From a bacterium (lineage in GTDB: Bacteria > Patescibacteriota > Dojkabacteria > GCA-016699595 > JBAXKR01), in assembly GCA_037131125.1 (NCBI GenBank), contig JBAXRR010000003.1, positions 3,682-67,681 on the forward strand: DNA of 64,000 nt, read 5' to 3'. The notes under the pieces are model-generated. The model ran no database searches. It saw only the letters and a program-made list of their open reading frames with translations, and was not told the origin of the DNA. Below are positions 22,707 through 60,019 of the stretch, one piece after another (the first letter of the stretch is position 1; each line of letters begins with the position of its first letter). The translations under genes were made by a program, and so were the position numbers.

Positions 22707-22731
22707 TTTAGATATTTTAGATATTTATTCT

Positions 22732-23499: not shown

Positions 23500-23508
23500 A
23501 AGTATATT

Positions 23509-24369: not shown

Positions 24370-24454
24370 AATACTTGATATTCAAGGTTTTTTCATCATA
24401 AATATTTCTTGATTCAATTGTAATTAATCCCGATTTATATTAGATTATACGCAT

Positions 24455-25069: not shown

Positions 25070-25616
25070 AGCATTTAGTATTATTGAAATAATTATAGCT
25101 CTGGTATTTAGCTCAGTTATTTTAACTACATTTGTTTCCTTGTCCGCATGGGGACTTAATAATGCAAAAGATAATGAAGTTGAAGATACCGCAACTCAAA
25201 GTATGGTTGAAGTTAATGATTTATTAAGATCCTCAAGTGATATTTCTGTAGATACTGCGCCTACAATTCTATATGGATTTTATACTCTGAACTATGCTCA
25301 ACAAAATGCAACAGCGGCTGAGAGGAATAAGTTAATTAAGTTTTACACTGACTCAGGAATTTTTACTTTAGATGATTTAACACTAGATTTTTGCAGGAAT
25401 AATCCTTCCCTTCAGGTTAAATTTTCTGATGCGAGTTCTAATTTAATTACATCAAATGTTATTTGTGTAATGGCTAAGATCACAAAGATGCATGATAATC
25501 CTCTAGATAACAGATATACGTATACTATCAAGGTTGTTGCAGAAAAGTCTGGTGACCAATCCTATGAAGAAACAATAGATGGACTTAGAGTTGGAAATTT
25601 TATTGCTTCAAACTAA
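25038..25616 (+). CDS. minor pilin / pseudopilin
   Basis: N-terminal KNKA|FSIIEIIIALVF class III signal. Overlaps the previous gene by 32 nt. Confidence 0.6.
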   Translation: MVIVKQLRKNKAFSIIEIIIALVFSSVILTTFVSLSAWGLNNAKDNEVEDTATQSMVEVNDLLRSSSDISVDTAPTILYGFYTLNYAQQNATAAERNKLIKFYTDSGIFTLDDLTLDFCRNNPSLQVKFSDASSNLITSNVICVMAKITKMHDNPLDNRYTYTIKVVAEKSGDQSYEETIDGLRVGNFIASN

Positions 25617-25618
25617 TA

Positions 25619-26281
25619 ATGAAAAAGTTACTCTTAACACTTAAAAAAAGAATAAAGAATAGAAGATCAGTAAGTTTACTTGAACTTCTTATAACTCTTG
25701 GAATAATGGTTATTCTCCTTACTATGATTTCTAACGTGTTTGTTGAGGTTATGAGAATAAATATTTTAAATAAAGAAAGAACATTTGTAAGAGAAGAATC
25801 TGCAATATTACTTGCTCAAATGAAAAAAGATATTCGAAATGCAGATAGTTTAGATAATTGTGTAGATATTGTATTAAATGCTGGAGTAGGACAATCCAGT
25901 AATGATTGCACTTTTAATACTGGTGGAAAAAAATATGAATGGAAGTTTGAAGCAGCAGCATCCCCTTTTGATCAAGATGGATATGTTGCCAATAAATATT
26001 TGGTAACAAGAGATCCAATAACAGGACAAGATAATGTATTTACATTAATATACACAAGTCCAGATGGGATTCTTTTTGACTTGGATCCAACACCTGGAAA
26101 TACTAGCAGTACAAATAAAATATTTACTATTCTTTCAGATCCACTTAGTCAAGATGGAGAGTTGACTGTTTTAATAAAGTTAGTTGCAAAATCTTTCCCA
26201 GGAGAGCCACTTTCTGAGCCTGCTGTAAAGAACGTTATAAAGCAAACTATTGTCTCTGCTAGAAATTTTAGTAGCAATTAG
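25619..26281 (+). CDS. minor pilin / pseudopilin
   Basis: N-terminal NRRS|VSLLELLITLGIMVIL class III signal. Confidence 0.6.
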   Translation: MKKLLLTLKKRIKNRRSVSLLELLITLGIMVILLTMISNVFVEVMRINILNKERTFVREESAILLAQMKKDIRNADSLDNCVDIVLNAGVGQSSNDCTFNTGGKKYEWKFEAAASPFDQDGYVANKYLVTRDPITGQDNVFTLIYTSPDGILFDLDPTPGNTSSTNKIFTILSDPLSQDGELTVLIKLVAKSFPGEPLSEPAVKNVIKQTIVSARNFSSN

Positions 26282-26345
26282 TTCTTAGTAATATTAAGAT
26301 AGTATACTGATGATGTAATAAAAATTAGATGTAATAACAAATAAT

Positions 26346-27392
26346 ATGAAACTGCCCGAATTCTTTGGATTAGACATTGGTAATCACACAATTAAAGTGT
26401 GTGAGACTAGATGGGAAGGAGATACTCCTGTTCTAGTTGCACTTGGAAGTTACGAAACTCCTTTTGGAGTTATTGGTTCTGAGAATACAGAACATAAAAG
26501 GCAATTAGCTGAGAATATAAAGAAAGCTGTAGCTGCATCAGGAATTAAGACTAAAAATGCAGTCGTTGCACTTCCTGAAGGAGCAATATTCACAAGACTT
26601 GTTCCAGGTTTTCCAAAAGTGTCTGACGATAAACTAGCTGAAGCAATTCTCTACGAAGCAAAAAAATATATTCCTATTCCTCCAGAAGAAACAAATATTG
26701 ATCATATGGTTGTAGGAGAGAGAACACAAGATGGGAAGGTCTTAATCGATGTTCTAATTGTTGCAGCTCCAAAAAGTCTAGTTGAAAGATATATGGAAAT
26801 ATTAAAACTATCTGGCCTTGAAGGATTAGCACTAGAAACAGAAGCAATTGCAACAACAAGATCGATTTCTTCACAAAAGAATTTTGATAAAACCAAAGCG
26901 GCTATTGTTTTAGACTTTGGTGCAAATGGAACTGATCTTAGTGTTATTAAAGGTGAGAGTTTATTATTCTCTCAGAGTTTAGGAACAGGTTCAGATGCAT
27001 TTACAAGGGCTATTGCTGTAGATTTTGGACTTACAACTCCTCAAGCTGAACAATACAAAAGAGTATATGGATTAGACGAAACAAAGGCAGAAGGAAAGAT
27101 TGCAAAGTCCCTCTACCCTATTATTCAGATTATCGCTATTGAAATAACTAAAACTATGGACTTTTTTAAGACTAGATTTGTAAATATGGTTCCTCAGAAG
27201 ATATACATAGTTGGAGATGGTGGAAAACTTCCTGGTTTGGCTGCATATTTAAGTAAAATATATAACATAGATTGTGAACTTGCTAAGCCATTTCAAGACT
27301 TTAAGATAGATGAGAAACTTAAGAAAGATATGGCTCAATTATCTGACGTAGGGTTTACAGTAGCCACAGGTTTAGCTTTAAAGAAAGAATAA
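26346..27392 (+). CDS. pilM: type IV pilus assembly protein PilM (actin-like ATPase fold)
   Basis: FGLDIGNHTIKV N-terminus, 348 aa, and position just upstream of PilN/O-like genes. Confidence 0.7.
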   Translation: MKLPEFFGLDIGNHTIKVCETRWEGDTPVLVALGSYETPFGVIGSENTEHKRQLAENIKKAVAASGIKTKNAVVALPEGAIFTRLVPGFPKVSDDKLAEAILYEAKKYIPIPPEETNIDHMVVGERTQDGKVLIDVLIVAAPKSLVERYMEILKLSGLEGLALETEAIATTRSISSQKNFDKTKAAIVLDFGANGTDLSVIKGESLLFSQSLGTGSDAFTRAIAVDFGLTTPQAEQYKRVYGLDETKAEGKIAKSLYPIIQIIAIEITKTMDFFKTRFVNMVPQKIYIVGDGGKLPGLAAYLSKIYNIDCELAKPFQDFKIDEKLKKDMAQLSDVGFTVATGLALKKE

Positions 27393-27393
27393 C

Positions 27394-27945
27394 TTGCCTA
27401 AGAACTATATAAACTTACTTACAAAAAAGACTCAAGGAGAACTTAAGGATGCAAAGAATATAGAGTTCTCTTCTATCTATTCAGCATTCCTTCCAATTCT
27501 TGCATGTGTTGTATGGATAGGACTTGTTATTGCAAATGGTGCAGTCTCTCAGAATGTAAAGATTGAAAAAGTGAATATAGAGACACAAAAGACAATGGAA
27601 AATGATATGTCTGTTTACCAAAAGAACAATGGACAACTTGTACAAAAAGTAGATATTCTTAAACCAATTATTCAGAAAGATGTAGATCCAAATAAAGTAT
27701 TTGATCAGATAAGAAAGAATCTTTCTACATATAGCGAAATATTAAGTATAGATGGATATACAAGAAAATCTGATGGACAATTTAGCTTTAGTGGAAAATC
27801 TAAAACATATTTAGATTTATCAAGGGTTATTAAAAAATTTGAGCAAAATACTGAACTTAAAAATGTCAATTTGAAGTCAATTGCATATAACAAAGATGCT
27901 GATATTGTTACCTTTTCAGTTACATTTTATTACGTAACGCTTTAA
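27394..27945 (+). CDS. pilN: PilN-like bitopic pilus alignment protein
   Basis: N-terminal YINLL motif, single TM, 183 aa, and follows pilM by 1 nt. Confidence 0.55.
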   Translation: MPKNYINLLTKKTQGELKDAKNIEFSSIYSAFLPILACVVWIGLVIANGAVSQNVKIEKVNIETQKTMENDMSVYQKNNGQLVQKVDILKPIIQKDVDPNKVFDQIRKNLSTYSEILSIDGYTRKSDGQFSFSGKSKTYLDLSRVIKKFEQNTELKNVNLKSIAYNKDADIVTFSVTFYYVTL

Positions 27946-27949
27946 GATT

Positions 27950-28759
27950 ATGGAACTTGCAGATAGAGATTTAAAAATAGCTGATGATGTTTCTGGGAGT
28001 ATTAAGAAGTCTACTAAAAAAGACTTTGTAGATGTCCTTAAACAATATTCAATTCCTTTGATAAGTGTTTCCCTATTCTTAGGAGTAGCTATAATTAGTA
28101 TCTTTCCAACAGCAACAAGTATTTTTGATAACTACAAGCAATTGGATAAGCTTAAGGCAAGTGAGAAGACTAATCAGGATACATTAGATAAGCTTACAAC
28201 TTTGAAGGAAAGAGATGCTCAAACAATTAGTGATCTTGCAACGATTGATCAAATAGTTCCTTCTGAAAAAACTAAAATAGTTGGTCTTCAACAGTTTATT
28301 CAAGATAAAACAAAACAATATAATCTTGATCTTAAGGAAATGACTATCGGTGAACAGTTACAAAAGGTTTCAGATGGGACATCTACAACAAAGACTTCAA
28401 AGGTTGCTACTGTAGATGCGCAAGGTAATCCTATTAAAAATACGGAAGATAGCTTACGCGTTGCTCCTACTACCGCAAAGATTGAAGGAAAGTTTGCAGA
28501 TATTCAGAGTTTCTTTTCCGACTTCTATAAAGTTAATGATTTGTACATAATAACTACTATGAATCTTAAATCTTCAACATCTATTTCTCCTAATCAGATA
28601 ACTACGAGTGATGCAAAGTGGTCATTAGATATTACATTTTCTAAATATGCATTTTCGGAAGATTTCTTAACTAACTCAGTTGCATTTACAAAGATTCCTA
28701 TTTCTTCTGTCCCGGATTCTACAGTTCTTAAATATTTGAGAGATAGGTATACGAAATAA
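27950..28759 (+). CDS. PilO-like bitopic coiled-coil protein
   Basis: Single TM then a coiled-coil region. Position after pilM/pilN. Confidence 0.4.
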   Translation: MELADRDLKIADDVSGSIKKSTKKDFVDVLKQYSIPLISVSLFLGVAIISIFPTATSIFDNYKQLDKLKASEKTNQDTLDKLTTLKERDAQTISDLATIDQIVPSEKTKIVGLQQFIQDKTKQYNLDLKEMTIGEQLQKVSDGTSTTKTSKVATVDAQGNPIKNTEDSLRVAPTTAKIEGKFADIQSFFSDFYKVNDLYIITTMNLKSSTSISPNQITTSDAKWSLDITFSKYAFSEDFLTNSVAFTKIPISSVPDSTVLKYLRDRYTK

Positions 28760-35638: not shown

Positions 35639-36835
35639 TTACTTATTATCTGAAAATATCCTTGTATCTTCATCTCCAAGTCTCCAGTAGAATATCTTTC
35701 CTATACCTATACTCATAAGGAGATCTCTTCTTTTCTTGTCTACCTCATAATCTGTGTACCAAGCTTCATATGTTTTTCCGTTCTCTTTGTATGTAAGTAA
35801 TTTCTCTCCTGTTTCAGAATCTAACACATCTGAAACAAGTCCACTTTTCTTTCTGTAAGCCAATATGTCTGTATATGTAATTGGAGTTTTATTTCCATCT
35901 TGGTCATATCTATATCCATATTCAGGTAAACCTATACTTATCTTTTCTTTAGGTATTTTAGATTCAGCATATCTTGCTACATCTTCCATCCAGAATATTG
36001 GGGTAACTGCGTAACTTTTCTTAATTGGAGTTGTGTAGTCATAGACCATGATTCTAATTGTATCTGCAAGTGTGGATAGAAATACCCAATCCTGATTACG
36101 TCTTGTTGGTGTTGAGTTTTCTGTTATGAAGTCTTTTGAAAGGACTGTAATAACTAACTTTTTATTTTCTTTCTTTAATCTTCCTGAAAGATCTGTCATA
36201 AATGCTTCATATTGATCCTTCATCCCCTCTTCTACATTTTCATAATCCATATCTATTCCTGCATAGCTATTCTTAACAGCATAATTAACAATAGCAGATG
36301 TATGTGCTTCAAGTTTAGTAGGATCATTAAGAATTTTAGAAAAATCTTCATACACGAAGGAAGAAATTGAAGGAATGAGGTCTATGTTGTTTGTTTTACA
36401 ATATGCAATTAAGGTTTTGTCATTTGTAGCAGCTTTAGTAGCAAGTCCATCTTTTTGTTTTGGATCTAGTGTAAACCATACAGGAGTTATTGTTTTAAAT
36501 GAGGATGAATACTTTTTGAAAACATCAAATCCTTTTTTGAAAGCAAAATCTGCAATATATGCATCTACATCTTGGTGGGTAACAGCTACTTCTGAAGAAA
36601 CACTTTCAGAACTTGAAACTTGAGATGAAGCTATGCTCGATGTATTAGGACTGATTACTGTAGATATATCCACAGGCTTATTGTTTACAAGTTGTGAGAT
36701 TAAATTTGGTATTGCAGAAAAGTCTAAACTCCCATATTTGTTACTAGAAAATGTTAAAGCAAATGTGGCAAATAGGAACACAAGACTTCCTAAAAATAGA
36801 AAAAAGATTACTTTTAATACACTTGGTGGTTTCAT
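35639..36835 (-). CDS. membrane-anchored glycoside hydrolase family 18-like protein
   Basis: N-terminal TM plus Ser-rich linker. The GH18 catalytic DxDxE motif is present as AGIDMDYE. Confidence 0.5.
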   Translation of the reverse strand: MKPPSVLKVIFFLFLGSLVFLFATFALTFSSNKYGSLDFSAIPNLISQLVNNKPVDISTVISPNTSSIASSQVSSSESVSSEVAVTHQDVDAYIADFAFKKGFDVFKKYSSSFKTITPVWFTLDPKQKDGLATKAATNDKTLIAYCKTNNIDLIPSISSFVYEDFSKILNDPTKLEAHTSAIVNYAVKNSYAGIDMDYENVEEGMKDQYEAFMTDLSGRLKKENKKLVITVLSKDFITENSTPTRRNQDWVFLSTLADTIRIMVYDYTTPIKKSYAVTPIFWMEDVARYAESKIPKEKISIGLPEYGYRYDQDGNKTPITYTDILAYRKKSGLVSDVLDSETGEKLLTYKENGKTYEAWYTDYEVDKKRRDLLMSIGIGKIFYWRLGDEDTRIFSDNK

Positions 36836-36885: not shown

Positions 36886-39800
36886 CTAGAAATTAAAGAG
36901 GTTCTTCAAGGTATTAAGTATGAGAGTAGTGACATCTTTCGACACACTTGCAGTAATAGCTACTGTATTTGATGAGTATCCAGTATTGTTTGCCTTATCA
37001 TTAGATATTGCTCTAAAGTGATATACCTTAGAAGGCTCTAATCCTGAGATAACTACTTGATGATTTAGCGTAAGGTTAAAATCAGTAGTAGTCTTAGTAT
37101 TGTATGTATCCGAATATCCATCTCCATACTCTACACTTGTTGTAGCAGGCTCATCCGTATTCCAATTAAGAACCACTTGAGACTTCTGGTTATTGGTATT
37201 CTCATTAGTAACTGGGTTAGTATCTATTGTAAGTTCACTAATAGCTGGAGGTCTTGTATCTGTAGATGTAGTAAATTTAATTGATTCACTTACTGCTTCG
37301 TTACCTACCTTATCTCTTCCTTTAACTATTAATATATATGGAGTATCTGGATTAAGTTGGTTCATAGTCATCTTGTGATCACCTTTGACTAAAGTCAAAT
37401 TAACAAGATCTCTAGAACTTGTAGGTAAACCTTCTGGATAGTATGTGACAATAGATGACTCCTCTGTATTCGTGATCCACGAAACGATTAAAGTAGTTTC
37501 AGCTGTATTCTTTACTTGTTGTAACTTAATGTTTGTTACAGTTGGTCTTGGTAATGTTGTGAAGTCTAGAATTAAATTATCATACTCGTTTCCTTCTGTG
37601 TCTATAGTGTTAATTTTGTAATAGTATTTTGTTCCATCTTGAAGACCGTCTAAAGTGAGCGAATAATTTGTTTCTGAAACTGATGTTGCCAATTCTTTTG
37701 CACCTCCAAAGGAAGTGGAAATACCATAGTATAGTTTTACTTTTGATGCTTTGATAGAGGTAAAATCTATTTGTGCACTGCTAATGCTCACATATCTGGT
37801 AACAGTGTTTTTAACAATTGGAGCAGAATCGGTAGTAAATATTTTTTCATCAGACTGTCCTGTGTTTCCATCTTCGTCAGTCCAGCTCACTTTGAAAAAA
37901 TAACTTGTTGAGGGTTTAAGATTTGTTAGGTTAACAATATGATCCGTATTTTGTGCTGAATTCCCAACCTCATCTTTAAAGTATTCTCCGGAAGCTAATC
38001 CATATGATACTTTTGAATCACTTGATCTATCTGTTGTCCAAGATATTTCACCTGTTCGAATACCTGAGATAACATTAGGTCCGGAATTTAATTTAGCGGG
38101 ATTTTTAAATTTACCTTTAGGAGTTAATGTAACTGCGTTTGTATATGAAGGACTTGCTTTAGATTCATCTGAATTATCTGTTGTTCCAACTCTCCAGTAA
38201 TATGGTTTAGATTCAGCAACAGTATCTATGTACGAATTGCCTGTAGTTGTGTCTACATCAGTCCATGTTGTTCCGTTTTCTGATCTTTGTATTTTATATG
38301 TTAGTGTTCCTGTTCCTTGATATGCAGGATTTTCCCATACTAAAGAACCTCTCCAAAGTAATGCCTCCTTAATTGAAGCGTCACTTACCAATAGGTTAAG
38401 TGCAGGATCTGGGAGAGATGAGTTAAGTACAAATTTTCCTTTAAGACAGCTAGAACCAGAATAATTGTTCACATTATCTACGGACACTACATATACTGTA
38501 TTATCTCCTTTAACAGCTCCAATGAGTTTTTGTATTGGTACACTGTTTGTGAGTACTGGAATATATGTAGCAGAATTTGAAAGAATGGAAGAATACGAAT
38601 TAGGTGGGTTCGTATTAACCATATAGTAGTATGATTTTATTGTTTTACCTAATGCAGGTACTGCTGCATCCCAAGAAAGTGCAAAAAGATTTGAGTTTAA
38701 TGCTGATGGAGTAAGAGTAATTCCAGTTTCATCTAAACAAGATTTTGAAAATGTAGGTGCTTCTCCACCATATGAAATATTTGCGGTTCTATATGTTCCT
38801 TGAATTGAAGTGTTTCCTATACTATCTATAGTTCGAAAGTAAATTACATTATTGCCAACAATAATATCTGATCCATCTCTTACAGGATCTAAATAATATG
38901 GTTGCGCTTCCCCAACTGGAATGTATTTAACTCCAAGTGTAGGGTCATTGAAAGATCCATTCCAACTTCCACTGGTCCCATTGATTTTGTATTGCCATCC
39001 AATGACTTGTGACTCGTTATCTATTGAAGCTGTTCCACCAGTTGTTGGCCATGTGAAAAACATATCTGAAATATTGAAAAAACTTCCATTTGTTGAAGAG
39101 ATGTAAGTTACATTTGTTGGAGGTGTATTATCAAATCTAAATTGAAAACTTGTTGAAGCACCTTGATATATATTATTACCAACATCTATTGCTTTTATAC
39201 TTAAGTAGTATGGTGATGTAGAAGATGTTAATGCACTTGCTAAATATCCACTAGTTGATAAATCTAATGAAGTCCCAGCCACAATGAACTGACAAGTTGA
39301 ACCAACTGTTGATACTGGAGATGTTCCAAGAATTCCCTTAACAGTTGCTGGATCTCCAGCTGTAGTTATATTTAGGTTTAAACAATATCCCTTAATGCCC
39401 TTTCCACCTACATTATCTATACCCGCTGTCCAAGTAAAATATGGTGTAGAAGAGTTTGTCCAAGCATTTGAGGATATTCCAGTCCCCCCATTACTCGTAT
39501 ACATTAATATACTGCTCGCATTTGTTGGAGGAGGTGTAACATCAGACTCTGTTTTATTGATAGTAATATCTGAAAATACAGGAGTCGTATTATCTGCTGT
39601 ATTTAAAGTCACTTCATATTGAACATACCTTTGATTGTTTGTTACACACCCACCAGTTGATATATTTGCACCAGATGCAATAGCAGTACATGAGGAGAAT
39701 GCAGTTGCACCAGACATAGTAGATGAATTACTTGATCTTACTTTTACAGAAACACTTCCGGAACTATTATATCCGAGTGTAGTCCAATCTTGTCCAACAG

Positions 39801-41241
39801 TTGAATCAAAAATATTTGAGGTTACACTTCCTGTTGTAACATATGTGTTTAAACTTATATTATCTATGTATACTGTTTTGTTTCCTTTAAACTGTACACC
39901 ATAAGTTCTTACTGCATTTGCACCTACTACTGTTCCTGTTAACTGATACCAACCACTTCCAACAGAATTATATGTTGTTGTGATAGTTGAACCATTTGAA
40001 AAGAGTTCAATATCAGAAGATGTTACTGCTGAGCCATTGGTGTATGCATATGTTGAAATATTATATGTATTTGTATCTCCAAGATTGATTGACTGTGTAA
40101 ATTCCCCTTTCCTTGTTCCCGTTGAAACTAACTTTGCACTTCCTGTACTTCCACCATATTTAGTAACAGTATCTCTTGTAGCAGAAGTTATTCCTGTTGT
40201 AATAGCTATATTATATTTATCCCTTAGATAATTTTCGATTCTTCCTCTATTATCACTTGAAAGTCCTGTGTTATATACGATTACTTCAGCAATATCTTCA
40301 TTTTGATAATGCCCACCTGCGTTAAATCTACCAAGATCTATGTTGGCAAGATTAGTTGCAGTGAAATCACCACCAACCAAAGTGTATGAAGTTTCGTTTC
40401 CGTTTACTCCATATTTTGAAGCATTTGTACCTTGATCAACTCCAAAGTAATTTCTAATGATTCCGAAGTTATTTAATGCAAAAGCTTGTGAAGTATAATT
40501 TACGCCGTTTGATTTAATTCCCCCTATGTTTCCACTTGCTAGTCCATATGTACCTATGTGGTAACCATTTTGAGGACTACTAAACCCTATTCCTAAACTA
40601 CTGTGTGTTCTGTTTCTAATTACTAAGAAGACCTCTGGCGCTAGTCCTGCAGTTGTAGCTGTTGTTGAAAGATAATCATCTGATCCATCAAATCTAACAG
40701 CAGGTAGGCTGTTAATAGAGTTTGTTATGTAAAGAGGTTTATATGATGCTGTTGATTGAGTGGCATTTGCATTACCACTTGAATCAGTCCAAGTTGTAAC
40801 CGGATCATTGTTGTTAAGTCCAACAATAGCATCTGCTTTAAGCCATAATTTAAGCCCAGTAATAGAGCTTGGCTGAATAGTTGTATTCCAACTAGCTAAA
40901 TCAGATTCAAAACCAGTATTGGATAATTTCTCAACTTTATTTAATGTTATTTGCCCAGGAGTTCCAGTTGTGTCTACATTGGAAGATGACGAGTATGTGT
41001 TTACAGTTGTATTAACTGTTCCTCCAACAACACCTCCGCTCCAATCTGTTTGCGTCCAAGGAGCATCAACAGCAAATATTTTACCAACTCCACTTAGGGT
41101 TATGTAAGCACCAGCAACAATACCAATTGAGATCCAAATGAGAGCAAATATATTTAATTGCCACTTAATAAAATATACCTTCTTCGTAAAGAGTTGATAA
41201 TTAAGATTCTTAAGGTTATTCTTAATTTTATTTAAGAGCAT
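36886..41241 (-). CDS. giant (1451 aa) Thr/Ser/Asn/Gly-rich cell-surface protein with repeated beta-rich (fibronectin-III / Ig-like) modules
   Basis: N-terminal membrane anchor. Long low-charge T/S/N/G-rich repeats. Confidence 0.55.
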   Translation of the reverse strand: MLLNKIKNNLKNLNYQLFTKKVYFIKWQLNIFALIWISIGIVAGAYITLSGVGKIFAVDAPWTQTDWSGGVVGGTVNTTVNTYSSSSNVDTTGTPGQITLNKVEKLSNTGFESDLASWNTTIQPSSITGLKLWLKADAIVGLNNNDPVTTWTDSSGNANATQSTASYKPLYITNSINSLPAVRFDGSDDYLSTTATTAGLAPEVFLVIRNRTHSSLGIGFSSPQNGYHIGTYGLASGNIGGIKSNGVNYTSQAFALNNFGIIRNYFGVDQGTNASKYGVNGNETSYTLVGGDFTATNLANIDLGRFNAGGHYQNEDIAEVIVYNTGLSSDNRGRIENYLRDKYNIAITTGITSATRDTVTKYGGSTGSAKLVSTGTRKGEFTQSINLGDTNTYNISTYAYTNGSAVTSSDIELFSNGSTITTTYNSVGSGWYQLTGTVVGANAVRTYGVQFKGNKTVYIDNISLNTYVTTGSVTSNIFDSTVGQDWTTLGYNSSGSVSVKVRSSNSSTMSGATAFSSCTAIASGANISTGGCVTNNQRYVQYEVTLNTADNTTPVFSDITINKTESDVTPPPTNASSILMYTSNGGTGISSNAWTNSSTPYFTWTAGIDNVGGKGIKGYCLNLNITTAGDPATVKGILGTSPVSTVGSTCQFIVAGTSLDLSTSGYLASALTSSTSPYYLSIKAIDVGNNIYQGASTSFQFRFDNTPPTNVTYISSTNGSFFNISDMFFTWPTTGGTASIDNESQVIGWQYKINGTSGSWNGSFNDPTLGVKYIPVGEAQPYYLDPVRDGSDIIVGNNVIYFRTIDSIGNTSIQGTYRTANISYGGEAPTFSKSCLDETGITLTPSALNSNLFALSWDAAVPALGKTIKSYYYMVNTNPPNSYSSILSNSATYIPVLTNSVPIQKLIGAVKGDNTVYVVSVDNVNNYSGSSCLKGKFVLNSSLPDPALNLLVSDASIKEALLWRGSLVWENPAYQGTGTLTYKIQRSENGTTWTDVDTTTGNSYIDTVAESKPYYWRVGTTDNSDESKASPSYTNAVTLTPKGKFKNPAKLNSGPNVISGIRTGEISWTTDRSSDSKVSYGLASGEYFKDEVGNSAQNTDHIVNLTNLKPSTSYFFKVSWTDEDGNTGQSDEKIFTTDSAPIVKNTVTRYVSISSAQIDFTSIKASKVKLYYGISTSFGGAKELATSVSETNYSLTLDGLQDGTKYYYKINTIDTEGNEYDNLILDFTTLPRPTVTNIKLQQVKNTAETTLIVSWITNTEESSIVTYYPEGLPTSSRDLVNLTLVKGDHKMTMNQLNPDTPYILIVKGRDKVGNEAVSESIKFTTSTDTRPPAISELTIDTNPVTNENTNNQKSQVVLNWNTDEPATTSVEYGDGYSDTYNTKTTTDFNLTLNHQVVISGLEPSKVYHFRAISNDKANNTGYSSNTVAITASVSKDVTTLILNTLKNLFNF

Positions 41242-43227: not shown

Positions 43228-45291
43228 TTATTTATTATGTAACATTATATAGACTTTTTGGCACTTTTGTATAAGTTCTCGATCTACAATACTAGCTAAC
43301 TTAAACTTAGGTATACCAGATTGCATCGTACCATATACCTCTCCTGGACCTCTAAGTTTTAGATCAAATTCAGAAAGTTCAAAACCATCTGTATGTGTTG
43401 AGAAGTATTTTAGTCTTTCAAGAGATTTCTCACTTAAACCTTTCTCCTCACCTTCTAAAACTATCTGACCATTAATGTTATTAACTTCAGAGTTTTCTTT
43501 TGAATTTTCAGAACTTGGGAAAAGTAAACAGAATGATTGCTTATCTCCTCTTCCTACTCTTCCCCTTAATTGATGAAGTTGTGCAAGACCAAATCTTTCT
43601 GCTGACTCTATAACCATAACTGTTGCATTTGGATTATCTATCCCAACTTCAATAACTTGTGTTGTAACAAGAATATCTACACTTCCCTTCTTGAAGTTAT
43701 CTAGGATATTATTCTTCTCTACTTCTTTTAACTTTCCATGTACTAATTCAACCTTAGCTTTATTAAATATTTTCTTTATTCTTTCATACTCTTCTTTTAC
43801 ATTCTTAAGTTTGTTATCTTCATTTTGTTCAATTAAAGGACAGACAATATATATTTGTTCTTTCTTTTTAAGTCTCTCTTTAATCCAGTCATACCCTTCT
43901 TTTCTCTTCTCCTCAGGAACAATATATGTCCTTATGCTTTTCCTATTCGTAGGTTTTGTTTTAATAATTGAAACAGTTAAATCTGAGAAGAATGTTTCTG
44001 CAACAGTTCTAGGAATTGGAGTGGCTGACATCATTAGAAGATGGGGTTTAAGTCCTTTCATTTCTTTAAATATCTGCTCTCTTTGCTCTACCCCAAATTT
44101 ATGTTGTTCATCTACTATGACAAGTCCAACATTACTTAAGATCTTAGGGTCTTTGTAAAGAATAGAGTGTGTGGTTATATATATCTTCGGTTTACATTTT
44201 TCATCCTTTTCTAAAACTCTATTAATTTCTTTTTTAAGTGATTTCTTTTTAACAATTTTTTCTTTTGTTCCACCAAGCATGAGTACCACTTCGTAATTAG
44301 ATCTTGAAAGCATTTCGTCTATTGTTTTTTTATGTTGAGATGCTAGGACTGTCGTAGGACAAAGAAGTACTACATCAAATCCATTCCCAAGTACAACGTT
44401 TGCTGCAATTACAGATACCGCTGTCTTTCCACTTCCTACATCTCCCATAAGTAATCTATCCATTGGAATATCTTTTGAAATGTCTTCGAGTATTTCACTC
44501 ACTGAACTTTTTTGATCCTTAGTTAATTCAAAATCAAGTTTCATTTTAGATGCCTTAATGATAGACATAGCATGCGCTTTATATTTCACTGCATTTTCTT
44601 TCTTCTTTTGAATCTTTTCAACTACTTCATACATTTCATCAAAAGCAAGTCTGGATATTGATCTTTCTAAATCAGGAAAATCTTTTGGGAAATGAATGTT
44701 TTGAATTGAGTATAAAAATGGAGAAAGGTTAAATTCCTTTAATACATTATCAGGTAAATCTTTAAATCCTGAAAATATTTGATTAACATTATGACTTACG
44801 AGTCTCTGCCTCGCTCTAATCCATTTTTGTGTTATTCCTCTTGTGGAGGGATATACAGGAACAATGTGGCCTAATGTTTGTGGTGATGTGTAACTTTCTA
44901 ATTCAACTGGACTGAAGTTATATGTTTTAAGAAATTTAAGTTTCCCGTACATAAGGTAAGTATCTCCTTCCTTAAGTTGAGTAATAATATATTCCTGATT
45001 AAACCAAAGTATTTGAGCAGACATACTTTCATCTGAGATTTTTGTAATTACAAGCTTCTTGTAACCTTTAAGTTTCTTAACGAAGTGAAAATCTATCCTG
45101 ACCTTAACAGTATGGTACTCTCCATCTAAACATTCCTTTAATGTAGATATCTTTCTTGTGTCTATATATCTTCTTGGAAAGTGGAAAATTAAATCCTTGA
45201 TAGTCAATATACCAAGTCTTTCTAGTACTTCAGAGTACTTTGGACCAACAGATGGAAGGAATCTAACTGGATCATTTAATGAAAACCCCAT
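43228..45291 (-). CDS. recG: ATP-dependent DNA helicase RecG
   Basis: Wedge domain, GDVGSGKT Walker A, DEQHKFG and motif VI QLRGRVGRG. Confidence 0.85.
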   Translation of the reverse strand: MGFSLNDPVRFLPSVGPKYSEVLERLGILTIKDLIFHFPRRYIDTRKISTLKECLDGEYHTVKVRIDFHFVKKLKGYKKLVITKISDESMSAQILWFNQEYIITQLKEGDTYLMYGKLKFLKTYNFSPVELESYTSPQTLGHIVPVYPSTRGITQKWIRARQRLVSHNVNQIFSGFKDLPDNVLKEFNLSPFLYSIQNIHFPKDFPDLERSISRLAFDEMYEVVEKIQKKKENAVKYKAHAMSIIKASKMKLDFELTKDQKSSVSEILEDISKDIPMDRLLMGDVGSGKTAVSVIAANVVLGNGFDVVLLCPTTVLASQHKKTIDEMLSRSNYEVVLMLGGTKEKIVKKKSLKKEINRVLEKDEKCKPKIYITTHSILYKDPKILSNVGLVIVDEQHKFGVEQREQIFKEMKGLKPHLLMMSATPIPRTVAETFFSDLTVSIIKTKPTNRKSIRTYIVPEEKRKEGYDWIKERLKKKEQIYIVCPLIEQNEDNKLKNVKEEYERIKKIFNKAKVELVHGKLKEVEKNNILDNFKKGSVDILVTTQVIEVGIDNPNATVMVIESAERFGLAQLHQLRGRVGRGDKQSFCLLFPSSENSKENSEVNNINGQIVLEGEEKGLSEKSLERLKYFSTHTDGFELSEFDLKLRGPGEVYGTMQSGIPKFKLASIVDRELIQKCQKVYIMLHNK

Positions 45292-45415: not shown

Positions 45416-46534
45416 TTATCTGCTAACTTTATTCTTCACCATTTCAGATAACTCTTTTATCTTTGGATTGTCAAGATATTTAGTAGCAGGTGCAAGAATA
45501 TTAATTAAAGATCTTGCTACAGCATCCTTAAGATCCATAGGATGTAGTTTCTTTTCAACGAAGTCTTTTTCTAGTTCTTCATATGTTGTATATGTCTTAT
45601 CTCCACCCCACTCTGTTTTTCTTTTTATCTCTATAGTCTTAGTTCCAAGTTTAAAACAAACATGTTTAGACCAGTCAAGAACTGGATTAAGCTTAACTTG
45701 TCCTTCTGGACAGAATGCTTTCATAATCTTTTCTTTAATTAATTCTGGAGAATCACTTAAGAATACTGCACTCATAGGTTTACTTTTGCTCATCTTTGCC
45801 TCAGCTAGATCTTCTCTAGTAAGTTCACCTTTAGCTTGTACTTCTTTAGATGGTGGAGTTAGTCCTCCAAGTAAGTGATGATGGATTGCAATTGGAGAAA
45901 TTCTTTCATCTCCTGCCATCATGGGTTTAATTTTTACTGACTTAGCTACATCAAGAGCTATTACGTGAGCTTTTCTTTGATCCATTCCTGCATGCATTAT
46001 TTGTGTTTGCATGTAGTAAATATCTGCAACTTGCATTGCAGGGTAGATTAGTTTTGCAAAGTCAGTACTTTCTCCTTCTTTTCTTCCCATAATATCTATA
46101 CTTCTTTCAATTCGAGCAAGGGAAGTGTTCTTGGCAATATCTATTACACATGCCCAGTAATCTGATGAATCCACAATATCTGATGCCTTTACAAACTCTA
46201 TTTCATCATATTTAGCACCAACCATTAATGCAGATGCTTTGAATAGCTCTTTGAATAGAGGTATTCCTACTTCATCCATGAATTTAAGATCGCCACCTAA
46301 TTTGTCATTAATCCATGCGTGCCAATCTGCTAAAAATATTGTGCAGTGAACTCCAAGATCTTGAAGTTCTTTTATTACAAGCATTGCACTTACAGCGTGT
46401 CCTATATGGAGATTACCTGAAATTTCAAGACCTATATAGTGCTTGAGAGGGACTTTCTTATCTAAAAGTCTTACTAAAGTATCTTCTCCAATGATTTCTT
46501 CCGTAACGCTTTTTAGTTTTGTTATGTCTGTCAT
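45416..46534 (-). CDS. tyrS: tyrosyl-tRNA synthetase, archaeal/eukaryotic type (class I; no bacterial S4-like C-domain)
   Basis: HIGH and KMSKS motifs. Collinear similarity to archaeal TyrRS (YIG.E.SG..H.GH, LAD.HA..N, YP.MQV.DI.Y, HPMDLK.AVA), with the Tyr-recognising Tyr and Asp positions conserved. Confidence 0.7.
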   Translation of the reverse strand: MTDITKLKSVTEEIIGEDTLVRLLDKKVPLKHYIGLEISGNLHIGHAVSAMLVIKELQDLGVHCTIFLADWHAWINDKLGGDLKFMDEVGIPLFKELFKASALMVGAKYDEIEFVKASDIVDSSDYWACVIDIAKNTSLARIERSIDIMGRKEGESTDFAKLIYPAMQVADIYYMQTQIMHAGMDQRKAHVIALDVAKSVKIKPMMAGDERISPIAIHHHLLGGLTPPSKEVQAKGELTREDLAEAKMSKSKPMSAVFLSDSPELIKEKIMKAFCPEGQVKLNPVLDWSKHVCFKLGTKTIEIKRKTEWGGDKTYTTYEELEKDFVEKKLHPMDLKDAVARSLINILAPATKYLDNPKIKELSEMVKNKVSR

Positions 46535-46599
46535 GCTTGTATTTTAGCAGATTAGAAAAATAAAATGGAAAGAGAAATAATATTAATTATTTTTCCTCT

Positions 46600-46845
46600 T
46601 TATATTGTTGTTTCACTTTCTTTCTGAGAGTTATCATTACTTGCCTGCACAGTTTTTAGTTGTATATTTTGAGATCCAACCATAACTGGAACTGGTTTTA
46701 ATAATACAGATGAAATTTTTTTATGAAAACGAACTGTAACTGGTGCTTCTCCTTCCACATAGAGAATCCCTTTTACACCTTTGGGTAAAGTTGTATCTTC
46801 GTGTACAAATGCACTTTCTGGGTTTGCATGAATTGTGTCTGGCAT
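46600..46845 (-). CDS. hypothetical small protein
   Basis: 81 aa ORF between tyrS and tRNA-Tyr. Confidence 0.4.
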   Translation of the reverse strand: MPDTIHANPESAFVHEDTTLPKGVKGILYVEGEAPVTVRFHKKISSVLLKPVPVMVGSQNIQLKTVQASNDNSQKESETTI

Positions 46846-46882
46846 ATTAATAAAAATAATAAATTATATATAAAAATTTGTA

Positions 46883-47089
46883 TTACATATTGTATTCAGC
46901 TCTTTGTGAATGTACGTTATCTACTCTTGCATCAATAGGGAGTTGCTTGCCTCTCTCATTTACTATAACTATGCTAGTGACTCGGTTAAGAGCATCTCTT
47001 AATTCGCTATTTGCTTCCAATGCTCCTGGTAACCTTAATTCGTCACCAACTAACATCTCGTTGCTTTGTTCTCCTACTACTGTTGCCAT
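46883..47089 (-). CDS. hypothetical small protein
   Basis: 68 aa ORF. Confidence 0.4.
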   Translation of the reverse strand: MATVVGEQSNEMLVGDELRLPGALEANSELRDALNRVTSIVIVNERGKQLPIDARVDNVHSQRAEYNM

Positions 47090-47118
47090 GATGTATAAAA
47101 TAAAAAATAAATATAAAA

Positions 47119-47150
47119 ATAGAAAATAAAAAATCCCACTTGTGTGGGAT
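47119..47150 (-). terminator. intrinsic terminator (second of two in tandem)
   Basis: Minus strand AATCCCAC-acaa-GTGGGATT followed by TTTTTATTTT. Confidence 0.55.
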
Positions 47151-47175
47151 TCTTATTTTCTTACTAATTTCTTAG

Positions 47176-47202
47176 TACAAACAAAAATCCCGCCTATGGG
47201 AT
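47176..47202 (-). terminator. intrinsic terminator (first of two)
   Basis: Minus strand ATCCC-ataggc-GGGAT followed by TTTTGTTTG. Confidence 0.5.
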
Positions 47203-47253
47203 GACTAGTCGAATAAAATAAATTTTGTTTGTTCTTTGAGTTTTCACGAGATG

Positions 47254-47281
47254 ATTATAATACTCTTGGGATGATTGTCAA
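47254..47281 (-). promoter_or_regulatory. consensus sigma70-type promoter (TTGACA, 16 nt spacer, TATAAT) 14 nt downstream of the tRNA-Tyr 3' end, reading into the two terminators
   Basis: Minus strand ttgacaatcatcccaagagtattataat read directly. Confidence 0.4.
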
Positions 47282-47295
47282 TATATTTAAACATT

Positions 47296-47369
47296 TCCGC
47301 AGGGAAGGATTCGAACCTTCGAATACTGGATTTACAGTCCAGGGTCTTAAACCACTTGACGACCTGCGG
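47296..47369 (-). tRNA. tRNA-Tyr (anticodon GTA), class-I-like with a 5-nt variable loop, C1:G72 and A73; CCA not encoded
   Basis: Manual fold. Acceptor CCGCAGG/CCTGCGG, U8, D-arm with A14 and G18G19. Anticodon stem CTGGA/TCCAG with loop CT-GTA-AA. T-arm GAAGG-TTCGAAT-CCTTC. Confidence 0.85.
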
Positions 47370-47391
47370 ATAGGTATATTAAGTAGTCCTA

Positions 47392-47421
47392 ATTCTAAAG
47401 GATTGCATACCCACTAGTCAA
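47392..47421 (-). promoter_or_regulatory. candidate promoter of tRNA-Tyr (TTGACT, 18 nt spacer, TAGAAT)
   Basis: Minus strand ttgactagtgggtatgcaatcctttagaat, about 20 nt upstream of the mature tRNA 5' end. Confidence 0.35.
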
Positions 47422-47439
47422 AGGAAAAGCCCAATATTC

Positions 47440-48450
47440 TTAATCTCTTGAGCTAACTGCACTTGATGCTCTTGATGAGGTGCTTAGTCTGGATTCAGTG
47501 TTATCACTGGATTCACTACTAGTTCTTTTATCTATTAATGCACCTATTTGTTTTAAGTATGATTTGATTTTAGCAATGCTTTGTTTTGCTTTAGCAAGAT
47601 CGTCTCTTCCTAAGTTTCCTTCATCTTTTGCAGGTTTTGTGTCCTTTGCAGCAACCATAGCATTAAACTTTGTTTCTGCATCTGTTACATAAGTTTTTGC
47701 AGTATTCAATTCTGTTTTAGAATTTGTAAGGTATTCGTTTATTGAAGTATAGTTAGGAATTGTATCTTGGTTTTCCTGTATTGTTGCATCTACTCTTGTA
47801 AGTGTTGTTTCTAATTTCCCAAGGAGGAATTCAAGCCTGTATGAAGCCAATAGACCATATATCTTAGGTCCAAACGTTGCATATATTCTATGCCCCTCAT
47901 AAACGTTTCTTACTTCTGCTTTTAGGTCATCTAGATTTGTTAATCCTTGAATTTTAGCTTTCTCAGTTTGAAGATCTGAAATCTGTTCACTTATTAGATT
48001 GATAAGCTTTGTCTTATTTGCACTTGAGATGTTTGTCTCACTTGTAACCTTTGAGGTAAGTCTATTGGATAAGAAGCTGATTCTTTCATCTATTATTTTA
48101 GTTCCTAGTTCAATAAGCTTAGCTACTTTGTCTGCTGTTTTTGCAGCTTTGTAGGAAGTAAGAGCTGAGTTCGCATCCTTAAGAGTCTCTTCTACACTTT
48201 TAACGCTAGTTTCTTTTGAAGTTGTAGTAAGACTTCTTGAGGTTTCACTGGCTCTACTTTCTGAAGTTCTTGTAGCACTTATAGGTCTAATAGAAGTAGT
48301 TTTAGATGAACTTGATGATGACCTACTAGATTCAGATGCTCTGGAACTACTAGTAGAACTAATAGCGTTAACAGATGTAAGTAGAACACTTGATCCAAGT
48401 GTAAAGTACATTATTAAGGAGATTATGAAGATATTTTTAATAGTTTTCAT
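47440..48450 (-). CDS. secreted Ser/Thr/Arg-rich coiled-coil protein, unknown function
   Basis: Signal peptide, S/T-rich ends and a central heptad-like region. Confidence 0.45.
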   Translation of the reverse strand: MKTIKNIFIISLIMYFTLGSSVLLTSVNAISSTSSSRASESSRSSSSSSKTTSIRPISATRTSESRASETSRSLTTTSKETSVKSVEETLKDANSALTSYKAAKTADKVAKLIELGTKIIDERISFLSNRLTSKVTSETNISSANKTKLINLISEQISDLQTEKAKIQGLTNLDDLKAEVRNVYEGHRIYATFGPKIYGLLASYRLEFLLGKLETTLTRVDATIQENQDTIPNYTSINEYLTNSKTELNTAKTYVTDAETKFNAMVAAKDTKPAKDEGNLGRDDLAKAKQSIAKIKSYLKQIGALIDKRTSSESSDNTESRLSTSSRASSAVSSRD

Positions 48451-48473: not shown

Positions 48474-48791
48474 TTAAAGTGCAGGTGCAGTATCTCTTGC
48501 TGTATCTATACTGTCTGCTTCTTTTAATGTTGCATCTATTTGATTAATTATTGTATCTGTTTCTCCTTGTACGCTATTAAGTCCACTTTGGTTAATTGAT
48601 TCTACAGAAGAACTAGCAGAACTGTCCGATGATGTAGTAAGACTTCCTATTGAAGTTGCTTTACTTGTTGTGCTTGCACTTGTAGATTTCTGATTAAGAA
48701 AGTAGAGTCCTGCAACTATTAGGACAATTAAAACTACTATGATTACTGCCAATATTACCAATATATTAGCTTCTTTTTTTTCACCTTCCAT
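48474..48791 (-). CDS. small membrane-anchored Ser/Thr-rich protein
   Basis: N-terminal TM and S/T-rich ectodomain. 105 aa. Confidence 0.4.
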   Translation of the reverse strand: MEGEKKEANILVILAVIIVVLIVLIVAGLYFLNQKSTSASTTSKATSIGSLTTSSDSSASSSVESINQSGLNSVQGETDTIINQIDATLKEADSIDTARDTAPAL

Positions 48792-58103: not shown

Positions 58104-58193
58104 GGAGAGATGGCCGAGTGGTTTAAGGCGACAGTCTTGAAAACTGTTGTGGCAGCAATGTCACCGGGGGTTCGAATCCCTCTCTCTCCGCCA
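58104..58193 (+). tRNA. tRNA-Ser (anticodon TGA), class II with long variable arm; 3' CCA encoded
   Basis: Manual fold. Acceptor GGAGAGA/TCTCTCC. Anticodon stem ACAGT/ACTGT with loop CT-TGA-AA. T-arm GGGGG-TTCGAAT-CCCTC, then G-CCA. Confidence 0.85.
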
Positions 58194-58240
58194 GATCTTT
58201 ACTTGAATATTCCAAATTTGTAGTTGTGTAATTGTAAATT

Positions 58241-60019
58241 TTACTCAGACTTCAATACTTTTTTGGCATCCTCCAGATTTATTCGTGCCTTCTTTCCATA
58301 TTTATCTAATAATGAGAGTAAATTGTTTCCGTTGATTAGTGTAATTGGTTTTCCTTGTGCAAATTTATATGCATCGGGACCATAATCCGATGTAGTAACG
58401 ATTATTCCTTTCATTGCTCCCTCATCCTGCATTATTCCATACAATGCTCTAACAGATTCTACTTTGACTGTGTTTGTGTATCGCTTTGCTTGAATAATTA
58501 TCTTTCCTCCTCTTAGTGGATCGGGGTCAAAAGCTACTGCATCTACTCCAAGATCACGACTAGATTGGGTGATTTTTACCTCCATTCCAGATTGTGCAAA
58601 TTCTTTTTCAAAGACTTCTCTTACTAAGTGCTCAAAATCCTCCCAATCCATTGCTGCAATATTAAGTTGATCTTCCATTTCACCAATTACTTCTCTTGCT
58701 TCAATAAAACGTTTATCACTTTTGTCTATACTCATTATTGGCGCAATAGGTGCAAGACTTGTCAACTTACTGCTACAAATTCCCTTTAAACCACGTAAGC
58801 AAAGTTTAGGGTCAATTTTAAGAAGATTGAGTTGAAGGAAATCTTGTTTTTTTACAAACACAGATAGTATATATATGATTTTATGATTTCCCGTAGATTT
58901 ATCGAGTATATCTACAAAACCATTAAAGGCAATGGCATCAATCGAATTAGTTTCATCATTACTAAAGACCTCGTTTATTGTTCTTATAGGTATTGAGTAA
59001 AGGACTTTGTCATAGATTTTTTCTTTTTCATTCTCAGAAAGTAATATCTGCTCGCTACTCCCAGTTGTTTTATTGAATTTTTCTCCTCTATATTGGGGAA
59101 TAACATCTTGTGTAGGTAATTCGTAGTCTATCAATAGTAATTTTTCATCTTTTTTATATTGTAAGAATACATTCTCAGGGAAATCTTGTGGATAAACTGA
59201 ATCGATAAGAATCTTAGTGAAATACTTTGTTATCATTTCTGGATCACCTTCTTCAAAAAGTTTTTTCTCTCTTTCAATTCCACTGTTAAATTCTTCCTGT
59301 TCTTTAATAAACTTTTCTTTGCTTTGCTCCCAATCCGAAACTGACTTGTCATAGATAGATTTTTTCTCATTCCACTCACTTATTTGTTTTTCAAAGTTTT
59401 CTTTCCTAAGTTTTTTGTTCTTTTCGCTCCCAAAAAGTATTTCCCATAAATCTTCTTTTGGTTCGCAGTTTTGAATCTCTGGTTTCAACGAAGTAAATTG
59501 TGGTCTAGGTTCATTAAAATTTTCGTGATTTTTGTAATCTTCCCATTTAAATTTAATTGGGTTCTCAACTGAATCAATTAAGATATTATCCAAGGATTTT
59601 ATTTCATTTTCTGCTTTTTCGGAGAAACTGACGGCTTTAGACCCATTAAATTCTTTAATTTTGTAATCTTGCCACTTATGTTTGTAAGATAATGCTTGTT
59701 CATTAAGTCTTTTTTGAATATAGTTAATGTCTGGATTTGTTGGTGTACTGAACGCTTTATTTAAACCCGAATGTGATATATATCCTTTATACCCTCTAAA
59801 TTTTCCTTTTGTTGTGTAAAGAATTTCTATGTTTTGCTTTATTAAATTGAAATCATCAGTTGTTTGTCCAAATTGAATAGGACAAAGAGCTGAACTCATC
59901 TCGAATTTATTTTGGCAAACAGGGCATAAAATTACTTGTGAGATTCTGTCATTATTGTCAAATTTTAATGTTGCCTTACAATTGGGACATTGTCCTTCAG
60001 CTAATATTGTTTTTGTCAT
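58241..60019 (-). CDS. Mrr-like restriction endonuclease domain protein with an N-terminal zinc ribbon
   Basis: C-terminal Mrr_cat-like region (..DLGVDAVAF...GGKIIIQAKRY...GAMKGIIVTTSDYGPDA). N-terminal CPNC...CPVC. Confidence 0.65.
   Translation of the reverse strand: MTKTILAEGQCPNCKATLKFDNNDRISQVILCPVCQNKFEMSSALCPIQFGQTTDDFNLIKQNIEILYTTKGKFRGYKGYISHSGLNKAFSTPTNPDINYIQKRLNEQALSYKHKWQDYKIKEFNGSKAVSFSEKAENEIKSLDNILIDSVENPIKFKWEDYKNHENFNEPRPQFTSLKPEIQNCEPKEDLWEILFGSEKNKKLRKENFEKQISEWNEKKSIYDKSVSDWEQSKEKFIKEQEEFNSGIEREKKLFEEGDPEMITKYFTKILIDSVYPQDFPENVFLQYKKDEKLLLIDYELPTQDVIPQYRGEKFNKTTGSSEQILLSENEKEKIYDKVLYSIPIRTINEVFSNDETNSIDAIAFNGFVDILDKSTGNHKIIYILSVFVKKQDFLQLNLLKIDPKLCLRGLKGICSSKLTSLAPIAPIMSIDKSDKRFIEAREVIGEMEDQLNIAAMDWEDFEHLVREVFEKEFAQSGMEVKITQSSRDLGVDAVAFDPDPLRGGKIIIQAKRYTNTVKVESVRALYGIMQDEGAMKGIIVTTSDYGPDAYKFAQGKPITLINGNNLLSLLDKYGKKARINLEDAKKVLKSE

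Follow-up and report, generated by a model that had tools for sequence, protein, structure and literature searches.

The alternative between C1:G72 and G1:C72 at the end of the acceptor stem of tRNA-Tyr is a textbook domain-specific identity rule. On it rests the orthogonal pair of tRNA and tyrosyl-tRNA synthetase (TyrRS) that has found the widest use in genetic code expansion. In the complex of the Methanocaldococcus jannaschii enzyme with its tRNA, Arg174 reads C1, Arg132 meets C1 via a water molecule and Lys175 reads G72, and the lack of cross-reaction with bacterial systems has been ascribed to the C1-G72 versus G1-C72 difference (Tsunoda et al. 2007, PMC1934993). Bacteria that follow the archaeal form of the rule have been described: the text available to us of Mukai, Reynolds, Crnkovic and Soll (2017, Life 7:8, PMC5370408) reports C1-G72 tRNA-Tyr together with archaea/eukarya-type TyrRS in Parcubacteria, Microgenomates, Dojkabacteria (WS6) and Katanobacteria, mentions tRNA-Tyr both with and without a variable arm (V-arm), and proposes lateral transfer involving DPANN archaea. 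A literature search found no later primary study of archaeal Tyr identity in these Candidate Phyla Radiation (CPR) bacteria. Here we describe a tyrS gene and an adjacent tRNA-Tyr gene of this kind in a 64-kb stretch of a Dojkabacteria contig (JBAXRR010000003.1; the whole stretch is referred to as the window). Archaeal-type Tyr charging in Dojkabacteria has been in print since 2017, and because the CPR cases reported then include this phylum, the pair in the window is a further instance and not a new phenomenon.

The two genes lie on one strand with the tRNA upstream, and 761 nt separate the 3′ end of tRNA-Tyr (47296) from the ATG of tyrS (46534), close to the distance of about 750 nt given by an initial interpretation of the window from its letters (the sequence-only reading).

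45416..46534, minus strand: tyrS, encoding an archaeal-type tyrosyl-tRNA synthetase of 372 aa (open reading frame, Pfam, NCBIfam and PDB match)
47296..47369, minus strand: tRNA-Tyr(GUA), 74 nt, class I shape, CCA not encoded (ARAGORN, Rfam covariance model, RNAfold)

The protein consists of a Rossmann catalytic domain carrying the HIGH (H43-I-G-H46) and KMSKS (K247-S251) motifs, followed by a C-terminal anticodon-binding domain. Its sole Pfam match is tRNA-synt_1b (residues 27-347 of 372), and an S4 domain is absent both from the Pfam scan and from the alignment with the closest solved structure, 2cyc (375 aa; presumably the Pyrococcus horikoshii enzyme), which is collinear over query residues 7-367, to the end of the protein (E 1.7e-116, ~53% identity). 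The NCBIfam archaeal-type equivalog NF006330 (tyrosine--tRNA ligase, PRK08560) is matched with 384.8 bits against a cutoff of 220, whereas the bacterial tyrS model TIGR00234 gives 95.6 bits, under its cutoff of 113.8. The sequence-only reading had taken the gene for an archaeal-type TyrRS, collinear with archaeal enzymes, with HIGH and KMSKS and without the S4-like domain, and each of these points is borne out. It had also named a better fit to tryptophanyl-tRNA synthetase (TrpRS) as the finding that would overturn this assignment; TrpRS identity was rejected, since trpS TIGR00233 gives 79.7 bits, far under its cutoff of 176.75, and every other TrpRS model is likewise below cutoff.

The residues with which the M. 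jannaschii enzyme contacts its substrates have counterparts in the window TyrRS. In a pairwise alignment of the two proteins (in which the match pattern of the M. jannaschii sequence agrees with the PDB matches), the acceptor-end residues R132, R174 and K175 correspond to R144, R187 and K188, and the tyrosine-pocket residues Y32, Q155 and D158 to Y33, Q168 and D171. The anticodon motif H283-P-M-D286-L-K288, whose D286 reportedly reads G34 (a result attributed to Kobayashi and co-workers in 2003), is represented by H331, D334 and K336. All of these acceptor-end, tyrosine-pocket and anticodon-motif residues are invariant across a 16-sequence alignment of the clade to which the window enzyme belongs.

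The tRNA carries the other half of the archaeal signature. The Rfam tRNA covariance model aligns over its full extent (1-71) with 47369..47296 at 65 bits (gathering score 29; E 7.5e-12), and the sequence can be divided as CCGCAGG-UC-GUCA-AGUGGUUUA-AGAC-C-CUGGA-CUGUAAA-UCCAG-UAUUC-GAAGG-UUCGAAU-CCUUC-CCUGCGG-A. The covariance-model alignment gives the identity set C1:G72, C2:G71, A73 and anticodon GUA; the variable loop is the 5-nt UAUUC and a long arm is absent. The acceptor, anticodon and T stems also form in the RNAfold prediction. Of the two tRNAs that ARAGORN calls in the window, one is this tRNA-Tyr(gta), placed at 47295..47370 on the minus strand; the extra outer U:A pair in that call is a register artefact, and the 7-bp acceptor register is fixed because the homologues at L036, L071 and L078 (L-numbers denote the homologous archaeal-type tyrS loci compared with the window) encode CCA right after ...GG-A. 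The fold thus agrees with the C1:G72 pair, A73 and 5-nt variable loop that had been proposed for this gene.

That the pair resides in a truly bacterial genome, as had also been claimed, is apparent from its surroundings. Directly downstream of tyrS are recG and then bacA/uppP, and the window also carries gyrA, gyrB and a complete operon for type IV pili, as well as genes for Pol III delta′, a prepilin peptidase and an LD-carboxypeptidase. The best named matches of GyrA are all from candidate division WS6 / Candidatus Dojkabacteria (62-65% identity), and the host is a bacterium of this lineage, a phylum of the CPR. GC content is uniform at ~0.32 without a step at tyrS, and the same contig was assembled independently from three samples.

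We conclude that this Dojkabacteria host very probably makes Tyr-tRNA(Tyr) in the archaeal way, with a tyrS of archaeal-type source that has been vertically inherited and a matching C1:G72 tRNA-Tyr. Enzyme and tRNA look co-adapted to the archaeal recognition mode, as first suggested, because the contact residues for C1, G72 and G34 of the M. jannaschii complex are retained in the enzyme and the adjacent tRNA offers the matching determinants. The TyrRS is a Pyrococcus/DPANN-like enzyme, devoid of the bacterial S4-like domain that binds the variable arm. Under this proposal it would read the acceptor end (C1, G72) through its Arg/Arg/Lys set, and the conserved His-Pro-Met-Asp-Leu-Lys motif would serve to read G34; the substrate would be the tRNA-Tyr(GUA) with C1:G72, A73 and no long variable arm. 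An early ancestor of the Dojkabacteria would have acquired tyrS from a source of archaeal type, with vertical descent since, and the tRNA-Tyr just upstream forms with it a two-gene module, between whose members variable DNA was presumably inserted later in the sublineage of the window. The pair is probably the sole Tyr system in the cell.

The closest homologues of the window TyrRS are from Patescibacteria and Dojkabacteria metagenome-assembled genomes (MAGs), at 54-90% identity. The next relatives, at 47-54%, are from Thermococcales, Pacearchaeota, Woesearchaeota, Nanoarchaeota, Asgard archaea and several other bacterial groups, and the nearest of those outside the clade (50-54% identity) are mostly archaeal. 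Neighbour-joining trees put the Dojkabacteria enzymes, whose number was enlarged via exact-protein look-ups, on a well separated, fast-evolving branch with 100% bootstrap support, which divides in two.

Subclade A: L006, L169, L167 and L168 (99% bootstrap)
Subclade B: the window, L084, L004, L086, L170, L171 and others (82% bootstrap)

The CPR clades branch basally in these trees, where long-branch attraction is possible. Identity within the Dojkabacteria clade is 54-67% for TyrRS as against 62-69% for GyrA among Dojkabacteria, and the order S-rich protein, tRNA-Tyr, tyrS, recG is kept in subclade B, for which recG serves as a synteny anchor that marks tyrS as a resident gene of the bacterial chromosome.

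43228..45291, minus strand: recG, conserved bacterial gene downstream of tyrS in subclade B

The near match of TyrRS divergence to that of GyrA, the synteny in subclade B and the non-deviant GC content together argue for an old acquisition followed by vertical descent.

The association of the two genes extends beyond this clade. Linkage was surveyed at archaeal-type tyrS loci in species-representative genomes, 23 of them bacterial-labelled and 57 archaeal-labelled by their submitters. A tRNA-Tyr is present no more than ~1.3 kb upstream of tyrS at 11 of the 23 bacterial-labelled loci and at none of the 57 archaeal-labelled loci (Fisher p = 1.3e-7), and intron-aware scanning likewise found no tRNA-Tyr near tyrS at any of the 57. 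The linked loci include contigs labelled Omnitrophota, Anaerolineae, Dormibacteria and WWE3; a C1:G72 tRNA-Tyr is directly upstream of tyrS at L019, L022, L025, L062, L073 and L077; and in one linked case, on a 1.85-Mb contig, tyrS is ~1.8 kb downstream of the methionyl-tRNA formyltransferase gene (fmt), a bacterial hallmark. The Chloroflexota loci L054, L059 and L079, among them two closed 4.2-Mb chromosomes, have an archaeal-type tyrS from which an adjacent tRNA-Tyr is absent. The survey suggests that linkage is particular to bacteria and might let the two genes be passed on as a unit, and that loss of the S4-domain enzyme is followed by loss of the variable arm. We raise, as no more than a tentative idea, that archaeal-type tyrS and C1:G72 tRNA-Tyr constitute a bacteria-specific linked module, absent from the archaeal-labelled loci of the presumed donor type and reaching well beyond the CPR into Omnitrophota-like genomes, Anaerolineae and Dormibacterota, a mobile and self-sufficient orthogonal pair that displaces the resident Tyr system and in which the variable arm is then repeatedly lost.

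The tRNAs linked to these genes differ in one respect. All 16 distinct sequences of linked tRNA-Tyr in a bacterial context have C1:G72, C2:G71 and A73, whereas the variable region is a loop of 5-6 nt in seven and an arm of 13-15 nt in nine. Within the Dojkabacteria the two forms follow the TyrRS tree: subclade A has a long-arm C1:G72 tRNA-Tyr (L006, L169), and every sampled member of subclade B with a linked tRNA (the window, L084, L004, L086, L170 and L171) has the short loop. Elsewhere long and short forms alternate among close TyrRS relatives, as in L071 versus L036, and in L062 and L073 versus L019, L022, L025 and L077.

The short tRNA may have arisen by remodelling of a native gene, and it is towards this account that we lean, at somewhat less than even confidence. 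The bacterial long-arm tRNA-Tyr would have been switched from G1:C72 to C1:G72 for the incoming enzyme, and the arm deleted at the base of subclade B once no S4 domain bound it. This scenario bears on the origin of the tRNA only and is compatible with the archaeal-type charging proposed above. We lean to it for three reasons. First, the sister subclade keeps the arm, a long-arm C1:G72 tRNA-Tyr standing beside an orthologous tyrS in subclade A, while all members of subclade B with a linked tRNA have the short loop. Second, long and short forms alternate in at least two other bacterial TyrRS groups. Third, the archaeal-labelled loci have no linkage. In addition, V-arm-bearing C1-G72 tRNAs are read as bacterial descendants in the available text of Mukai et al. 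(PMC5370408). On the other side, the tRNAs of the window and L006 differ at many acceptor and D stem positions (70% identity), and intermediate arm lengths are not seen among the linked tRNA-Tyr genes compared. The D-arm does not decide the matter either. In the short form it is GYCA-AGUGGNNNA-AGRC, with an A13:A22 mismatch and the same 4+9+4 layout as in the long-arm forms, and this class-II-like D-arm was considered as proof of bacterial descent; the argument was dropped, since a D-arm with A13:A22 is also present in yeast tRNA-Tyr. Outside the variable region, every comparator is 0.62-0.77 identical, which is uninformative on origin.

A separate observation concerns the tRNAs at L036 (5836..5921) and L071 (65..140), whose acceptor stems are near-identical (CCGAGGA and CCGAGGG), with a 14-nt arm in one and a 5-nt loop in the other. 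Both contigs are labelled Gammaproteobacteria and are probably mis-binned, and the two genes look like a second, independent long/short switch.

The sequence-only reading had suggested instead that enzyme and tRNA might have been transferred together, and joint arrival on one DNA fragment of tyrS with an arm-less tRNA-Tyr of archaeal origin would account for the class I shape, for the set C1:G72, C2:G71 and A73 typical of archaeal tRNA-Tyr, and for the placement of the tRNA upstream of tyrS on the same strand. We nonetheless regard it as rather unlikely, and this part of the earlier interpretation gains no support. With linkage at 0 of 57 archaeal-labelled loci, even under intron-aware scanning, no donor arrangement is in evidence; sister subclade A pairs the orthologous enzyme with a long-arm C1:G72 tRNA; the two forms alternate among close TyrRS relatives, L036 and L071 even sharing acceptor stems; and the D-arm layout of the short form matches that of the long-arm forms.

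A different question is whether the pair in the window acts alone. It could be supplementary, a second and orthogonal Tyr system alongside a canonical bacterial TyrRS and tRNA-Tyr, employed for instance in stress or antibiotic resistance, but the chance of this appears slim. Within the 64 kb, a profile search with the TyrRS clade found no second class Ic synthetase and ARAGORN no second tRNA-Tyr, and the limit of the genome view to this span leaves room for a supplementary role. The CPR genomes are, however, small (862 kb for the related AP024679.1), and such genomes rarely keep duplicate synthetases. Moreover, the long-arm tRNA of the sister subclade, native in design, has itself been converted to C1:G72, which would make sense only if the bacterial enzyme had gone. 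Coexistence is documented for the Trp system in Beckwithbacteria, and a supplementary-system role was proposed for TrpRS-A, in the available text of Mukai et al. (PMC5370408); the same text gives these bacteria C1-G72 tRNA-Tyr without reporting a coexisting bacterial Tyr pair. An assembly or binning artefact, in which an archaeal tyrS-tRNA segment was misjoined to a bacterial contig, is a concern in that CPR and DPANN organisms co-occur and their MAGs cross-contaminate (a point also made in the available text of PMC5370408), but it can be dismissed, since the junctions among the S-rich protein gene, tRNA-Tyr, tyrS, recG and bacA were independently assembled in three datasets and are syntenic in relatives whose TyrRS are 90%, 67% and 54% identical, with uniform GC content.

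Several points nevertheless weigh against the proposal of archaeal-type charging by a vertically inherited, linked pair. The specificity of charging is deduced from conserved residues and identity nucleotides. Our view of the genome is one of 64 kb, and a bacterial-type TyrRS with a G1:C72 tRNA-Tyr could lie elsewhere in it. The trees are neighbour-joining trees with a distant outgroup, and deep branching and the donor are beyond their resolution; both the direction and the timing of transfer are given here as the probable ones. Binning errors may account for some of the bacterial labels of MAG contigs, those of small Gammaproteobacteria and Planctomycetota contigs among them. Finally, tRNA-Tyr and tyrS are not an operon in the window, where the interval between them contains a strong promoter of its own and two terminator-like hairpins.

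The organization of this interval and of the region just upstream of tRNA-Tyr is as follows.

47392..47421, minus strand: promoter-like site 5′ of tRNA-Tyr, TTGACT-18-TAGAAT, 10/12 matches (by consensus match only)
47281..47254, minus strand: perfect TTGACA-16-TATAAT promoter (sigma70-type), directly 3′ of tRNA-Tyr (consensus match)
47202..47187 and 47154..47129, minus strand: two hairpins with U-tracts, downstream of the TTGACA-16-TATAAT promoter
47081..47281, minus strand: conserved non-coding module (sequence and fold comparison with L084, L004 and L086)
46600..47089, minus strand: lineage-variable stretch with open reading frames (ORFs) of 68 aa (46883..47089) and 81 aa (46600..46845)

The conserved module of ~200 nt is found in L084 (4397..4600), L004 (5427..5586) and L086 (3229..3374). 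It is 87% identical in L084, where the adjoining coding DNA is only 73-83% identical and where a 1.2-kb insertion, holding a 361-aa gene on the opposite strand, parts it from tRNA-Tyr; in L004 and L086 it is ~70% identical, with a compensatory change in the second hairpin of both. It folds far more stably than shuffled controls (z = -5.6), it holds an ORF of 17-23 codons in which a Tyr-Phe pair is kept, and the 3′ arm of hairpin 1 is able to pair with the 5′ arm of hairpin 2 in an attenuator-like manner. The module may be a leader or attenuator of tyrS (or of its operon), or a small RNA. If the idea of a mobile linked pair is correct, this element of promoter and double hairpin before tyrS would be a new attenuator for it in the lineage of the window. 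A T-box or other known Rfam element was considered for the interval and rejected, only sub-threshold, terminator-like matches being present: the T-box model RF00230 gives no match in 46400..47450 even at E <= 5 (the leader is only ~120 nt), and no Rfam family reaches threshold between tRNA-Tyr and tyrS, the best of the terminator-like matches being Phe_leader with 29.6 bits against a gathering score of 55.

The remainder of the interval varies among relatives. In the lineage of the window the gap between tRNA-Tyr and tyrS is filled by a variable insert of 0.76-1.9 kb (the matching intervals are 3207..4780 in L084, 4815..5857 in L004, 2572..4351 in L086 and 3364..3972 in L170), in which the ORFs differ and have no Pfam match; a Pfam family was found neither for the 68-aa and 81-aa ORFs of the window nor for the 361-aa gene inserted in L084. 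The interval behaves as a variable islet, and its pattern fits repeated insertion beside the 3′ end of the tRNA gene. In L171 a short-loop tRNA-Tyr is just 83 nt upstream of tyrS, so that tight pairing looks ancestral for subclade B and the 761-nt gap of the window secondary.

Other features of the window were noted. Upstream of tRNA-Tyr are genes for a Ser/Thr-rich secreted coiled-coil protein of 336 aa (47440..48450, minus strand) and a small membrane protein (48474..48791, minus strand); neither has a Pfam match, and both occupy the same position in L004, L084 and L086, where they are usable as synteny anchors. The type IV pilus cluster (13765..28759, plus strand) encodes PilB-like and PilT-like ATPases, PilC, several prepilin-type proteins with N-terminal methylation motifs, a prepilin peptidase and PilM, and is typical of the CPR. 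A tRNA-Ser(TGA) gene with a long variable arm and an encoded CCA adjoins an opposite-strand gene whose 592-aa product has an Mrr-type restriction endonuclease domain (58104..60019), and the two may form a small tRNA-associated island. At 1263..5268 are a helicase of the ResIII/DEAD type (381 aa), a 411-aa ORF without annotation that overlaps the helicase end, and a tyrosine recombinase of the phage integrase family (352 aa), which may be mobile-element remnants or a defence island. A protein of 1451 aa (36886..41241, minus strand), in which Fn3 and purple-acid-phosphatase N-terminal-like domains occur, adjoins a GH18 (chitinase-like) protein (35639..36835, minus strand), and the two are probably cell-surface or host-interaction machinery.

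The existence of bacteria that use the archaeal form of the rule shows that it is not domain-fixed, a point already made in 2017. What the window contributes is a clean and well-assembled case from the Dojkabacteria with an unfused enzyme and a V-arm-less tRNA, and the interest that remains is in the bacterial-specific linkage, the spread beyond the CPR and the pattern of V-arm loss. Natural TyrRS/tRNA-Tyr pairs of this kind are also candidate parts for synthetic biology.

Four known systems invite direct comparison. The canonical bacterial TyrRS (TyrS/TyrZ) shares with the window enzyme the reaction and the class Ic Rossmann fold, and with its tRNA the GUA anticodon and A73; it differs in that its C-terminal S4-like domain binds the long variable arm and it needs G1:C72, whereas the window protein has no S4 domain and falls below the TIGR00234 cutoff. 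The M. jannaschii pair shares the logic of recognition, in which C1:G72 is read by R174, K175 and R132, the variable arm is not bound and there is no cross-reaction with G1:C72 (PMC1934993), and the window enzyme has counterparts of these residues; the M. jannaschii TyrRS is, however, a minimal 306-aa form that is 37% identical to it, and that pair is the standard one added to E. coli as an orthogonal pair when the genetic code is expanded, whereas the pair in the window appears to be the organism's own Tyr system. The long archaeal TyrRS represented by 2cyc is similar in length (375 versus 372 aa) and shares with the window enzyme both its motifs and its insertion relative to the M. jannaschii enzyme; the window enzyme differs in having a bacterial host and in belonging to a separate, fast-evolving branch (100% bootstrap).

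Closest of all are the CPR cases of Mukai et al., which, as far as the available text of that paper goes, likewise combine an S4-less archaea/eukarya-type TyrRS with a C1-G72 tRNA-Tyr (PMC5370408). In their WS6 example, GW2011_GWA2_37_6, TyrRS is fused at its N terminus to a PheRS-beta B2 domain, whereas the window enzyme is a plain protein of 372 aa. The same text describes operons for Trp only and Tyr cases in the CPR only, whereas the survey presented here finds linkage of tRNA-Tyr and tyrS as well as cases outside the CPR, and for this reason the linkage and the wider distribution may go past the published account. Measured against that text, what is added here is the bacterial-only linkage, the split between short-loop and long-arm tRNA-Tyr by TyrRS subclade, and the variable insert in the lineage of the window.

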